A DNA stretch of 64,000 nucleotides from Escherichia coli (lineage in GTDB: Bacteria > Pseudomonadota > Gammaproteobacteria > Enterobacterales > Enterobacteriaceae), in NCBI RefSeq assembly GCF_024502345.1, contig NZ_JALDNN010000001.1; one strand, given 5' to 3'. How positions within the stretch are numbered: position 1 is the first letter of the stretch; the number at the start of each line of letters is the position of its first letter. The position numbers were made by a program. Positions 36,201 to 42,200 of this stretch are shown one piece after another.

Positions 36201-39200
36201 TACAGCCGGGCAGTGACGTCATCGTCTGCGCGGAAATGGACGAACAGTGGGGATACGTCGGGGCTAAATCGCGCCAGCGCTGGCTGTTTTACGCGTATGA
36301 CAGGCTCCGGAAGACGGTTGTTGCGCACGTATTCGGTGAACGCACTATGGCGACGCTGGGGCGTCTTATGAGCCTGCTGTCACCCTTTGACGTGGTGATA
36401 TGGATGACGGATGGCTGGCCGCTGTATGAATCCCGCCTGAAGGGAAAGCTGCACGTAATCAGCAAGCGATATACGCAGCGAATTGAGCGGCATAACCTGA
36501 ATCTGAGGCAGCACCTGGCACGGCTGGGACGGAAGTCGCTGTCGTTCTCAAAATCGGTGGAGCTGCATGACAAAGTCATCGGGCATTATCTGAACATAAA
36601 ACACTATCAATAAGTTGGAGTCATTACCATGCCCCATATCTCCACATTCACTGTACAGTGACCCGATGCCTCGGGAACTACAGTGGTTTAAATAGTTTGC
36701 TCTGGGGAGCGTGTAGCCATTGCTGCTGCAAAAATTTTCAGCAAGGCTGTATATCATGAAAGCCTCGCCGGCGTTCACCCACCAACTCTTCACACGGATT
36801 TCGTATACATAGCTAGGGCCTCCTGATTTTGGCGTCGCCGTAATCCTTTCCGAATTGCTGCCGACATTTTTAAATGTCACTTTACCGGTAGCATCAACAT
36901 CGACCCAGGAGGCAGAGCTTGAAAACTCATAATCAGCCGCCGTTTTTCCTGGGGCAAAGTTGTCATTATTCAACTGATAATACGCCCCGGTGAATCCCTG
37001 CGAAGGGAATGTAGTTGTCGGTAGGTCAGTACCATTGACTGACACTGTACCGCTCATTATTTTGTCTTCTGCGCGAGTGAATTGTATTGTGGTACTCAGA
37101 CCAGCTTGATGAACACCATTCAATACAGGGATCAGCGTTGCGATACCCTCTCTGCCGCCTGTAACAGTGGCTTTGTACTCGCCTGAGAAATTTTTACTGT
37201 AGTCAATTGCACTAACTTGCACATAGGGCACGTTGGTACCTGACTGCACAAATTCCAGCCCTTCAGAAACTTTGATCGGATTGCCTGATATATCGTGCAG
37301 AACAAGATGTAGCTCAGCACTATCGGTAAAGTCTCCTTTCAATGATGACCGATTGTTCTTAAGGACTGACTTTGAGGCGTCTGCCGGGCCTGCCACCAGC
37401 GTTATATCTACTGTTTGCATTCCACCAGCGGTCGTGACTGCGCTTACCGTGACGCTACCTGTCATCGCTCCTTTCACGCTTGTTGTCGCGATTCCGTTTT
37501 GATCTGTCACCGCTGTTAATGACGTTAATGTGGCAGAGCCGCTTTTTAAGGCGAAGTACACAGTTAAACCTTCGATCAGGTTACCACTGCCATCCTCAAC
37601 CGTTGCCTTTAAGGTACTTAAATCAGTGTTGGTGGCGGCGATAGTCGATGGATCAGCGATAAAGCTAGCAACATGGGCGGTACTTGAGTTGCCAGTGACT
37701 TTCACGATTGTCTGTGTCTGTATTGTTACACCGTTATGGAACGATGCAGTCACCGTATATGTACCGACTTTATTGCTGGTCAGAACGACTGGAGCCTGAC
37801 CTGAAGAGTTGGTTCTCACTTTTCCGCCACTTAACGTCGCACCTTCTGGCGTTACGCTAAAGTTGATGACCTGACCCTCCACTGGAGTGCCATTTGCAGA
37901 AGTTAGCGTTGCCGTCAGAGTTGCACCTGTTGGGGAATTGACACCGATAAGCGGGCTGGACGCCGAGAGTGTCAGTTTTTGATCGATTACCACCAGATCC
38001 TTCTCATAAGAGGATCCATTCGCCAGGGATGCTTTCACCATATACGAACCGTTTCTTTCGGGCGTCATAGTGACCTCGGCTATACCATGCGTATCAGTAG
38101 AGACAATATTTTGGCTGATGGTCATGTGCTCTGGTGGTTCTGCACTGAATGTTACAGATTCATTAAGAATCGGATTGCCAAACTGGTCGTTGACGTGAGC
38201 TTTAACTGCTACGTCTTGTGCGACCATGACCTGACCTTCAGGTATCTCCAGACTGGTAATCGTTGCAGAATTAATATCTGCTTTTGCATTCAGTAATCGC
38301 GAGATGACTTCAGTAGGTTTATCTGCCAGAGAGGCTGAAACTGTTTTCAGTCCGACTGATGTAGCCCCCTGAAACACCGGACAGTAGCTGTATCTCCAGA
38401 TAAGAGATAGGCTTGAATATATGTCTAACACTAACGCCAATTTTGAGATGACCGGGATCCTGTTAGGGCAAGAAGTCCGTAAACGTAAAACTCCTCAGGA
38501 GAAGATCGCCATTATCCAGCAGACGATGGAGCCGGGTATGAATGTCTCCCATGTCGCCCGCCTGCATGGTATCCAGCCCAGCCTGCTGTTTAAGTGGAAG
38601 AAGCAATATCAGGAAGGCAGCCTCACCGCCGTTGCGGCTGGAGAGGAAGTCGTTCCTGCTTCTGAGCTTACTGCTGCTCTGAAGCAGGTCCGGGAGCTTC
38701 AGCGCCTTCTGGGCAAGAAAACGATGGAAGTTGAGATCCTGAAAGAAGCCGTGGAGTACGGTCAGTCGCGAAAATGGATAGCGCACGCGCCCTTGTTGCC
38801 AAAGGACGGGGAATAGCCATGGTCAGCCGGACCATGGGCGTGTCGCGTGCGCAACTGTCACTGCGGATTAACCGTTCTGCCGACTGGCAGGACAGGCGCT
38901 GTAACCGGCGTAATGAAGAAGCAGACGCAGAAATACTGTCGGCTATCCTCAACATTATCAGCGATATGCCGAGTTATGGTTATCGACGCGTGTGGGGCAT
39001 CCTGCGCAAGCAACGTCGCACAGAGGGACAGCCACCTGTGAATGCCAAACGGCTTTACAGGATAATGAGCGAGCATAACCTGTTGTTGTTGCATCACAAA
39101 CCAGAGCGACCGAAGCGTGAACATAAGGGCAAGATAGCGGTGGCAGAAAGCGATATGCGCTGGTGTTCAGATGGCTTCGAGTTCGGCTGCGACAACGGCG

Positions 39201-42200
39201 AAAAACTGCGGGTAACGTTCGCGCTGGACTGCTGCGACCGTGAGGCCATAGACTGGGCAGCAAGCACGGGAGGCTATGACAGTTCGACCGTGCAGGATGT
39301 GATGCTGAGGTCGGTGGAAAAGCGCTTCGGCGACAGGTTGCCCGACACAGCGGTGCAGTGGCTGACGGATAACGGTTCAGCGTATACCGCGTATGAAACG
39401 CGGAGGTTCGCGAGAGAGCTGAATCTGGAGCCCTGCACAACAGCGGTGAGCAGCCCGCAGAGTAATGGCATGGCCGAACGGTTCGTGAAAACGATGAAAG
39501 AAGACTATATCGCGTTCATGCCAAAACCGGATGTGAGAACAGCACTGCGAAACCTTGCAGTAGCGTTCACGCATTACAATGAAAACCACCCGCACAGCGC
39601 GCTGGGATATCACTCCCCGAGGGAATACCGGCGGCAGCGGACATCGTTAACTTAAGATACAAAAGCTGTTCGGAGATGGAGGGTCAAGATCACTGTTTTC
39701 AGTCCGACCTCGGTGCTTGTCACAAGAATTTCAGCGAAACCCCGATCATCCGTTTCAACGCTGGTGCTGCTTAGCGTGACGGAAGTTCCGCGGAAATTAA
39801 CTTTTATACCTTCTACCGGGTTGCCGTTAGCGTCAGTGACGCTTGCAGTCATGGTCGCGCCCTCGGTCGTGCTGACGACGAATGAGTATACAGAGGTTAA
39901 GGAGGCTAGTTTTGCGGTACCAGCATCGGCAATCAAAGTCACCTGTTTCGTATCACTGACACCATAATTGTTCACGCTAACTGTCACGGGGTAGGTGCCG
40001 GATTTTGTACCGCTCAGTGTAACTTCAGCCTTGCCGTTGATGTCAGTAATGGCGGAACCGCCTTGTCCGAGAGTAAAGCTTGCGCTCACATCTGCCGGTA
40101 GCGTGAATGTCACCGCCTCATTGGCTAACGGGTTGCCGTTTCCATCAGTCACTGTTGCCTGCAGCCTGGTCATCCCGACGTTATTAGCGATAAAATTGTC
40201 CTCGGTAACGTTAAGATTAACCTGCGCAGTGAGCGTATCCGCAGTAAAGTTCACCACCAACTGCTCACTCTTACCGCCAGTTATCGATGCTGTAACAGTA
40301 TGAGCGCCTGCTTTTGTACCTTTCAGCGTGACTTTCGCTTTGCCTTCAGCATCAGTAATCGCTTTACCGCCATCGCTCAGCGTGAAGTTCGCCTTCACAT
40401 CTTCCGGCAGAGTAAATGTTACTTCAGTGTTGGCTATCGCATTGCCCTCTGTATCAGCGACTGTTGCTGTTAGTGTCGTGAGATCGTTATTGTCGGCAAT
40501 CACCGGATCCTTCGAGGCTGCCAGCGTGATTTCGGCATTCGCGACGTTCGGCACATAGGTCACTGTTTGTTGCATCGAATCGCCATTTTCGAGGGTTGCC
40601 GTCACTTGATAAACCCCGGCTTTTGTAGCGGTAAAGCTTGCGTATAAATAGCCGTCGTGGTTGGTAGTATTTATGCCGTTATTACTGAGGGTCACGCCTT
40701 CACTTGGTGATACTCTGAGGGTTACCTCCTGCTGGGGTACTCCGTTGCCGTAATTATCCTTCACCTCAATATACAGATTGGTAGTGTCGCCTGCGGAGAC
40801 TGTATCAAAAAGTGCCTGTAGCAAGGTGAGATGTGCCGTAGACGCATCAGCGTTGACATTAATTGATGTGCTAAGCGTGGAGCTACCATTTTCCAGACTG
40901 GCCTCAACGGTATCCGGTCTCGCTCCTGATTCTATCGAGGAGCGGGTATTGGTATAAGTGACGGCAGCCTTACCCTGTTCGTTCGTCACGGCTTGACCGC
41001 CGTTCGTCATTTCGGCTGTCGCTGCGTTGCTGGTGAAGTTCACAGTCACACCTTTCACCGGAAAGCCATTATTATCAACGACTGTGGCGGTGATGACGCT
41101 GCCGGAGCTGTTCTGCGGGGTACCGGCGATTATACTGTCTGGGACAGGCGTCAACTCGATAATTTTTGCCGCCGCTGTGTCGCCAATAAAATGCACAGTT
41201 TTGTTGTCGCTGGCACCATTATTAGCCAGTGATGCAGTGACCGTCTGCTCACCAAAGGCAACGCCTGCGAGAGTGGCCTGCGCGATGCCAGACTCATTGG
41301 TATTACTTACTCCCGGGGTCAGGGTGAGTCCTGAAGAGGCTGAGCTGAATGTTACCGGAAGATTATTCACCTCATTGTCGAACTGATCTTTAACCGTTGC
41401 AGTTAGCGTTGCGTTATCGACGCCATTACCTGTGATCTCATCTTTTGACATCTGCAGGACAACCTGAGCCGAGGTTTTGTCCGCCACAAATGTTACCGGC
41501 TGCGAATCACTGGTATTGTTATTACCCAGCGTTGCGGTAACCGTATGCGTGCCCGCTTTTTTACCTTTCAGCGTGACATGCGCTTCCCCATTGGCCTGAG
41601 TGATGGCAATACCGTTATTTTCAAGGGTAAAGTTTGCCGCAACGTCCTGTGGCATGGTGAAGTTTACCGTTATCCCCGCCACCGGATGATTCGACGGATC
41701 TTTCACCATCGCCGTAAGCTGCACGCTGTCACTGTTATTCGTCACCACCTGTTGAGCAGGGATGTTCAGCGTAACCTGCGCGTTGCTGGCATCGGGCGCA
41801 ATATTGACTGTCGTTGTATAGCCGTTGCCGTTAGGAAGTGTGGCTTCGACTGTATGAACGCCCAAAACCGTGCCCTTAAGGGTAACTTCAGCAACACCAC
41901 TGTCGTTAGTATTGCTTGTGCTCTGACTAAGTTGAGTATCTGCCGGGTTGGTACTGAAGGTGACCGGTAGATCTTTTACTGCGTTATCAAAAGGATCTTT
42001 CACTGTTGCTGTCAGAGTCGTCGCATCCACGCCATTCCCAATGATTTCCGCTTTCGATGTTTGCAGGACGACAACTGCGCTGTCCTTATCCGCCACGAAT
42101 GTGACTGGTTGCGCATCGCTGGCATTATTGTTACCCAGCGTTGCGGTAACCGTATGCGTGCCCGCTTTTTTACCTTTGAGGGTGACATGCGCTTCGCCAT

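Follow-up and report, generated by a model that had tools for sequence, protein, structure and literature searches.

A 16-bp direct repeat at an ISEcl1 insertion in yeeJ of Escherichia coli and the duplication lengths of related IS2-group elements

Insertion sequences (IS) of the IS3 family typically duplicate 3-5 bp of their target, a length that is characteristic of the family and not strictly defining for it. IS2 duplicates 5 bp, its ends are TAGA...TCCA (TAGACTGG.../...GCAAATCCA) and its frameshift motif is A6G. ISEcl1, an ISfinder name for an element first described in Enterobacter cloacae, is a common enterobacterial insertion sequence known next to mcr-8, mcr-10, blaIMI and qnrS1. The organisation of ISEcl1 is the same as that of IS2, with orfA and orfB joined by a -1 frameshift, an rve-type DDE catalytic domain and imperfect inverted repeats of about 40 bp, whereas its ends (TGAT...ATCA), its putative frameshift motif A AAA T (CGA AAA T) and its duplications of 15-16 bp are different. 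In this work, a 64-kb stretch of an E. coli contig (64,000 nucleotides of NZ_JALDNN010000001.1, assembly GCF_024502345.1) was analyzed, in which an element identified from its sequence as ISEcl1 interrupts the adhesin gene yeeJ and is bordered by a 16-bp direct repeat. The whole stretch is referred to as the window, and all coordinates are window positions.

ISfinder probably records the repeat length of ISEcl1. One ISEcl1 insertion has been mentioned in passing as "flanked by two 14-bp DRs" (PMC10913469). The regular length of 15 or 16 bp was not found in the searchable literature on ISEcl1, in which the only 16-bp lengths encountered refer to xerC sites, and repeat lengths for ISEc48 were absent from the ISEc48 literature found. 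No report of an extension to ISEc48 and other relatives, of a sharp boundary towards IS2-type ends, or of rare 4-5-bp events was found in the searchable literature. Stepwise duplication lengths have been described for the IS1202 family, in which the repeats of the subgroups ISAba32, ISTde1 and IS1202 measure 5-6, 15-17 and 27-28 bp, in steps of about 11 bp (bioRxiv 10.1101/2022.12.17.520857). The pattern, related DDE transposases with clade-specific steps in duplication length, is the same as that of IS2 versus ISEcl1. However, the IS1202 family is unrelated and has a single-ORF (open reading frame) transposase, its subgroups differ by indels of 5-30 aa compared with a 2-aa indel here, and mixed registers within one element have not been reported for it.

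The 16-bp repeat, its empty site and the identity of the element

The 1336-bp IS3-family element in yeeJ was bordered on both sides by the perfect 16-bp direct repeat CTGTTTTCAGTCCGAC, as the initial annotation had described. Exactly two copies were present in the 64-kb window (38341-38356 and 39693-39708), and the number did not change when up to 2 mismatches were allowed. Two matches to the 16-mer were obtained in 0 of 100 shuffles, and the probability of a perfect 16-bp match at exactly these positions by chance is about 4^-16. The element ends directly adjoining the repeat copies were TGATGTAGCCCCC... on the left and ...GGGTCAAGATCA on the right. The A at 38340, before the left copy, is the same as the last base of the element, so that the repeat could be read as 17 bp; it is 16 bp when the element is given canonical TG...CA ends. 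With these borders the length of about 1337 bp proposed in the initial annotation was corrected by one base pair, while its assignment to the IS3 family, the yeeJ context and the reading of the repeat as VGLKT in the yeeJ frame were right.

For the empty site, both flanks were joined with one copy of the 16-mer and the resulting 362-bp reconstruction was searched against all complete E. coli genomes. It was matched in a single piece in 4715 genome records, of which 563 reached ≥99% identity; in many O157:H7 strains the identity was 100%. When the window was aligned with the uninterrupted yeeJ locus of 2017C-4109 (strain locus L086), it gave two blocks, colinear with both flanks (window 36629-38356 with L086 5447-7174, and window 39692-46893 with L086 7158-14362), which overlapped by exactly the 16-bp repeat and one coincidental A. 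The 16-mer was single-copy in this 14.4-kb locus, and the insertion point corresponded to about codon 2035 of the 2660-codon yeeJ allele. Because intact yeeJ alleles hold the 16-mer once and are colinear with both flanks, the repeat was made by the insertion. Therefore two explanations offered at the outset, a repeat already present in the Big_1 array and recombination between yeeJ repeats, are excluded. A search of 5426 complete E. coli genomes did not recover this insertion. Even the closest of these genomes reached only about 99% identity across 18 kb of the window and lacked ISEcl1 in yeeJ, so the source strain is absent from that collection.

The ends of the element (TGATGTAGCCCC.../...GGGTCAAGATCA) formed an imperfect inverted repeat of about 40 bp with 5'-TG...CA-3' termini, as in the IS3 family, for whose ends a CA-3' rule has been given (PMC6211511). 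The two open reading frames overlapped by 43 nt in -1 phase, the two-ORF arrangement of the family, and the RefSeq annotation of these elements is "programmed frameshift". A fusion protein (P0018) reads ...GQSPK|MDSAR... across the putative frameshift point. OrfAB would be made by -1 frameshifting, with CGA AAA T (38769-38775) as the likely site.

In the NCBIfam comparison, orfA scored 201 bits with NF006928, below the IS2 TnpA cut-off of 229, and orfB scored 199 bits with the IS3 family transposase model NF033516, above its cut-off of 160, consistent with a DDE/rve transposase of this family. The score of orfB with IS2 TnpB was 416 bits, below the cut-off of 597. Nevertheless, the best NCBIfam matches of both proteins were IS2 TnpA and IS2 TnpB. 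Compared to IS2 of MG1655, identity was 75% for OrfA (InsC), 62.5% for OrfB (InsD) and 69% for the DNA. On the grounds of sequence identity and of the top NCBIfam matches, the element is placed in the IS2 group, in agreement with the initial annotation. It is distinct from IS2 itself, because it falls below the curated IS2 TnpA and TnpB cut-offs and has different ends.

Copies with more than 95% nucleotide identity are isoforms under the ISfinder rule. Identity of the element was 98.7% to the copy that directly precedes mcr-8.2 in p926_mcr8 (H174/L080), an arrangement called ISEcl1-mcr-8.2 in papers. It was 98.4% to the copies that belong to the IS1X-ISEcl1 module in Klebsiella IncFIB plasmids and are also named ISEcl1 in papers. 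The length of the element was that of ISEcl1, which is listed as a 1336-bp IS3-family element (PMC5001619). By identity and length, the element is thus assigned to ISEcl1. It represents an isoform diverged by about 1.5% from the Klebsiella plasmid copies. Full-length matches of 100% identity were present in many chromosomes and plasmids of E. coli, in Citrobacter and in other replicons, where this variant is widespread. Exact copies of both protein sequences occurred in thousands of enterobacterial assemblies, and one member of the 90%-identity protein cluster of OrfB was named "IS3-like element ISEcl1 family transposase". Matches were detected in 1986 PLSDB plasmids, 1576 of them from Klebsiella, and a scan of a species-representative genome collection for the left end gave one partial locus (L007). 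In four E. coli records (H1, H20, H22 and H24), the match was split into 2 pieces over about 2.5 kb by an insertion that carries the annotation IS110-family transposase. This suggests a target site for an IS110-type element within ISEcl1.

Duplication lengths in ISEcl1 and its relatives

The duplication was taken as the longest repeat that was exact and in direct contact with both ends of the element, and each distinct site was counted once, with copies drawn from E. coli genomes, plasmids and public assemblies. For ISEcl1 copies of ≥98% identity, 12 sites showed 15 bp and 13 sites showed 16 bp (the window and the mcr-8.2 copy included), with one further site of 4 bp. A variant of 93.7% identity had a single 16-bp site, and a 1333-bp variant of 95% identity had two sites of 15 bp, two of 16 bp and one of 5 bp. 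Among the relatives of about 78% identity, an unnamed element and ISEc48, 15 bp was found at 8 sites (one with a single mismatch) and 16 bp at 2. In total, 40 of the 42 repeat-bearing sites of the clade fell at 15 bp (22) or 16 bp (18), and the remaining 2 at 4 or 5 bp. The 16 bp of the element and the 15-16 bp of its clade depart from both the 3-5 bp typical of the IS3 family and the 5 bp of the IS2 group. The split between 15 and 16 bp was considered as a possible artefact of ambiguous end bases and this was rejected, as some 15-bp sites had neither an A before the left copy nor a T after the right copy. Several intermediate relatives were of no help for the lengths: the repeat at the single, old site of P0073, of about 15/16 bp, was decayed, P0098 and P0145 were chimeras with an IS2 right end, and P0129 was a decayed copy.

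The repeats were all different and AT-rich (39% GC), and no target consensus beyond AT-richness was found in 35 reconstructed empty sites. The repeats are derived from the target and not from the element, because they share no consensus and are AT-rich.

The same method applied to IS2A of MG1655 gave a 5-bp repeat, ATTAC. Two relatives with IS2-type ends (TAGA...ATCCA), whose OrfB was 67-70% identical to that of ISEcl1, also showed 5-bp repeats, AGTAT (L068-70) and TAGGT (L076). The long-duplication clade comprised elements with OrfB at least about 74% identical to that of ISEcl1 and ends TGA...(A/G)(A/T)CA. ISEc48 and the unnamed E. coli relative belong here by their OrfB (76-77% identical), ends (TGA...(A/G)ACA), length (1333-1336 bp) and 15/16-bp duplications; with about 22% nucleotide divergence they are separate insertion sequences by the usual criterion. 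Given the 5 bp measured in the same way for IS2 and for the two relatives with IS2-type ends, the long duplication characterises the ISEcl1/ISEc48 clade and not the whole IS2 group.

By these results the 16-bp repeat is very probably a genuine target-site duplication and the ordinary footprint of ISEcl1: an intact ISEcl1 transposed into yeeJ, and its clade normally duplicates 15 or 16 bp. The two checks proposed in the initial annotation, on empty sites and on other insertions of the element, were the right ones and settle the question: the 16-mer occurred once in intact alleles, and the lengths at unrelated ISEcl1 sites were almost always 15/16 bp. Its suggestion of an atypically long target duplication was right about the origin and length of the repeat; the length is, however, not atypical for ISEcl1 but the standard footprint of its clade.

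Among the other explanations, a canonical 5-bp duplication could have been extended later, either by recombination, between two sister copies inserted at a distance of 11 bp or between yeeJ repeats, or by slippage while the gaps were repaired. The description of the IS2 group as duplicating 5 bp and the two clade members with 4-5 bp speak for such a course, but a two-step accident cannot recur with the same length at 40 independent sites in several species and replicons, and both flanks were perfectly colinear with the intact allele, so that we consider it highly improbable. A misjoin induced by repeats during assembly, in which the read overlap at collapsed IS borders was duplicated, would also create such a junction; in its favour, the exact insertion had no counterpart in any complete RefSeq E. 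coli genome that could serve as a second assembly. The structure is nevertheless that of natural ISEcl1 insertions in dozens of finished genomes and plasmids, and an artefact would not give an element-specific length; this explanation is equally hard to credit. That the 16-mer was already tandem in the Big_1 array and the element entered between its two copies, duplicating very little or nothing, is the least credible of all and practically negligible: yeeJ is internally repetitive, with a 300-nt direct repeat at 41477/42086, but hundreds of genomes agree at 100% with the 362-bp single-copy reconstruction, the 14.4-kb reference locus holds the 16-mer once, and the same 15/16-bp length was found at 39 other unrelated targets.

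The two short duplications were compared with intact homologues. L028/L044, a 95% variant, lay in a gene of the inovirus-Gp2/YagK family with the repeat TCATG, and when its flanks were joined with one TCATG, the open frame spanning the junction agreed with the intact protein P0150 (207 aa) at every residue and without gaps. For L016, a copy that does not differ from the window element (100% identity), the repeat was CAGG, and over the junction its joined frame was gap-free and colinear with two homologues, P0224 and P0226. No DNA-level empty site for either insertion was found in E. coli genomes and plasmids. The two cases, in both of which the junction restores an intact gene, are suggestive of true 5- and 4-bp duplications.

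Other contacts with IS2-type elements were also observed. A single base pair separated the right end of ISEcl1 or of the 95% variant from an IS2 left end (TAGACTGGCCCC...) or that of an 80% IS2-like element in Klebsiella IncFIB plasmids (L018, L020, L023 and L082-L084) and in metagenome contigs (L041 and L043). The junctions represented two independent contexts with different spacer bases and had no target duplication; they look like insertion targeted to a related inverted repeat, or like an IS3-type heterologous end-to-end junction. In addition, L066 (E. coli CP043744) and L067 were chimeric elements with an ISEcl1- or ISEc48-like left part and the right end of IS2 (...GGGGCAAATCCA), and the left flank of L067 was that of the ISEc48-like copy L034, which suggests that different IS2-group elements within a genome underwent homologous recombination.

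A possible pair of integration registers

By analogy with IS3-family elements such as IS911 and IS2, ISEcl1 would produce an OrfAB fusion transposase through -1 frameshifting and would move by a copy-out-paste-in route through a circular intermediate. The junctions described above, in which ISEcl1 right ends lie next to left ends of IS2 type with 1 bp between them, in two independent contexts, gave only indirect support for the circle route. A read-level study listed no ISEcl1 circle junctions in Kpn2146 (Table 2: CJ 0; PMC5001619). The circle would integrate by two strand transfers, and the target spacing between them would set the length of the duplication. On the simplest reading, the two active sites in the ISEcl1/ISEc48 clade would attack phosphates about 15.5 bp apart, one helical turn (10-11 bp) more than in the 5-bp register of IS2, and both attacks would still fall on one face of the DNA. 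The repeat would then arise when the two single-stranded gaps of 15/16 nt are repaired, and the transpososome might occasionally use the ancestral short register.

The mean of the long duplications was about 15.5 bp and the short class measured 4-5 bp; the two lie about 11 bp apart, which corresponds to one turn of B-DNA. The two short duplications fit a minor short register one helical turn from the main register. Based on this, we tentatively propose, as a possibility short of a probable one, that the clade integrates in two discrete registers one turn apart, a dominant one of 15-16 bp (40/42) and a rare one of 4-5 bp (2/42).

The OrfB alignment of the long- and short-duplication clades contained no large indel. 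The linker that precedes the catalytic core had a 2-residue indel, another indel, of 1-2 residues, lay near position 47, and about 15 substitutions were fixed, some of them beside the DDE residues.

Several points weigh against the interpretation given here. About a dozen further copies had no repeat at all, and their flanks were other IS ends or swapped partners; for example, the right flank of L037 was that of L042 while their left flanks differed. These copies are tentatively attributed to recombination between copies or to insertion beside other IS ends. The stagger was deduced from the end products of transposition, and the helical-turn geometry is a putative one of our own interpretation. 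The comparison of OrfB in the two clades revealed no obvious determinant of the stagger. Finally, the two short cases could be 15-bp duplications that later lost 10-11 bp beside the element, which would give the same picture.

The surrounding locus and the meaning of the ISEcl1 footprint

The features of the interrupted gene and of the element are collected in Table 1.

Table 1. Features of the yeeJ locus and of the inserted ISEcl1 (window positions)
Feature	Position	Strand	Basis or remark
Left copy of the target-site duplication, CTGTTTTCAGTCCGAC	38341..38356	+	16-mer single-copy at the empty site of intact yeeJ alleles
ISEcl1 (IS3 family, IS2 group), 1336 bp, intact	38357..39692	+	Transposase on the + strand, opposite to yeeJ
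Left terminal inverted repeat, ~40 bp, imperfect, 5'-TGA start	38357..38396	+	Two-end alignment; identical in all copies
orfA, 131 aa, HTH protein of IS2 TnpA type	38421..38816	+	NF006928, Pfam HTH_Tnp_1
Putative -1 frameshift site CGA AAA T	38769..38775	+	Lys118 would be read, then slippage to the ATG at 38774
orfB, 293 aa, DDE (rve) catalytic part of the transposase	38774..39655	+	NF033516; Pfam HTH_21, rve, rve_3
Right terminal inverted repeat, ends ...TCA-3'	39653..39692	+	Two-end alignment
Right copy of the target-site duplication, 16 bp	39693..39708	+	Exact match to the left copy
Distal (C-terminal) yeeJ fragment, 3' end cut by IS1	36629..38356	-	Colinear with L086 5447-7174
Proximal yeeJ fragment, upper end approximate	39693..45884	-	Colinear with L086 7158-14362; frameshift near 43801 and nonsense codon 43627-43629

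Compared to the intact allele of 2017C-4109, yeeJ carried two additional lesions on the minus strand: a 1-bp deletion in a T5 run at 43801, which causes a frameshift with a stop at 43791-43793, and a GGA to TGA nonsense change at 43627-43629. The gene is a decaying pseudogene, possibly already before the arrival of ISEcl1, and the insertion simply inactivates a gene that is already decayed in this genome.

A 768-bp IS1 (35861-36628) abutted the truncated 3' end of yeeJ without a 9-bp direct repeat. It replaced 799 bp of the reference locus, namely 153 bp at the end of yeeJ, the intergenic region and a portion of the neighbouring glycosyltransferase-family-9 gene; this is an IS1-associated deletion at the 3' end of yeeJ. 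Two 100%-identical IS5-family copies of 1060 bp (52007-53066 and 53550-54609) were arranged in inverted orientation and bracketed 483 bp encoding part of the response regulator HprR, with the partner sensor-kinase gene starting from 54725. The pair looks like a composite or double insertion into hprR. With IS1, ISEcl1 and the two IS5-family copies, the density of insertion sequences and pseudogenes in the window was high.

ISEcl1 and its long repeat were known before, and the pattern at the level of the clade is a modest but real addition. In the window, the ISEcl1 insertion is one more inactivating lesion in yeeJ. Annotators and IS-detection tools that assume 3-5 bp for the IS3 family misjudge the borders of ISEcl1 or read 15-16 bp as an anomaly, and knowledge of its true footprint helps to separate simple insertions from rearranged ones. 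IS2 with 5 bp and ISEcl1 with 15-16 bp, at 62% protein identity, offer a convenient system for the spacing of the two strand transfers. If integration in two registers one helical turn apart is true and new to the literature, these elements, with OrfB 62% identical and no large indel, would, alongside the 5-6/15-17/27-28-bp series of the IS1202 family, be a natural pair for mapping what sets the stagger in integrase-like DDE enzymes.

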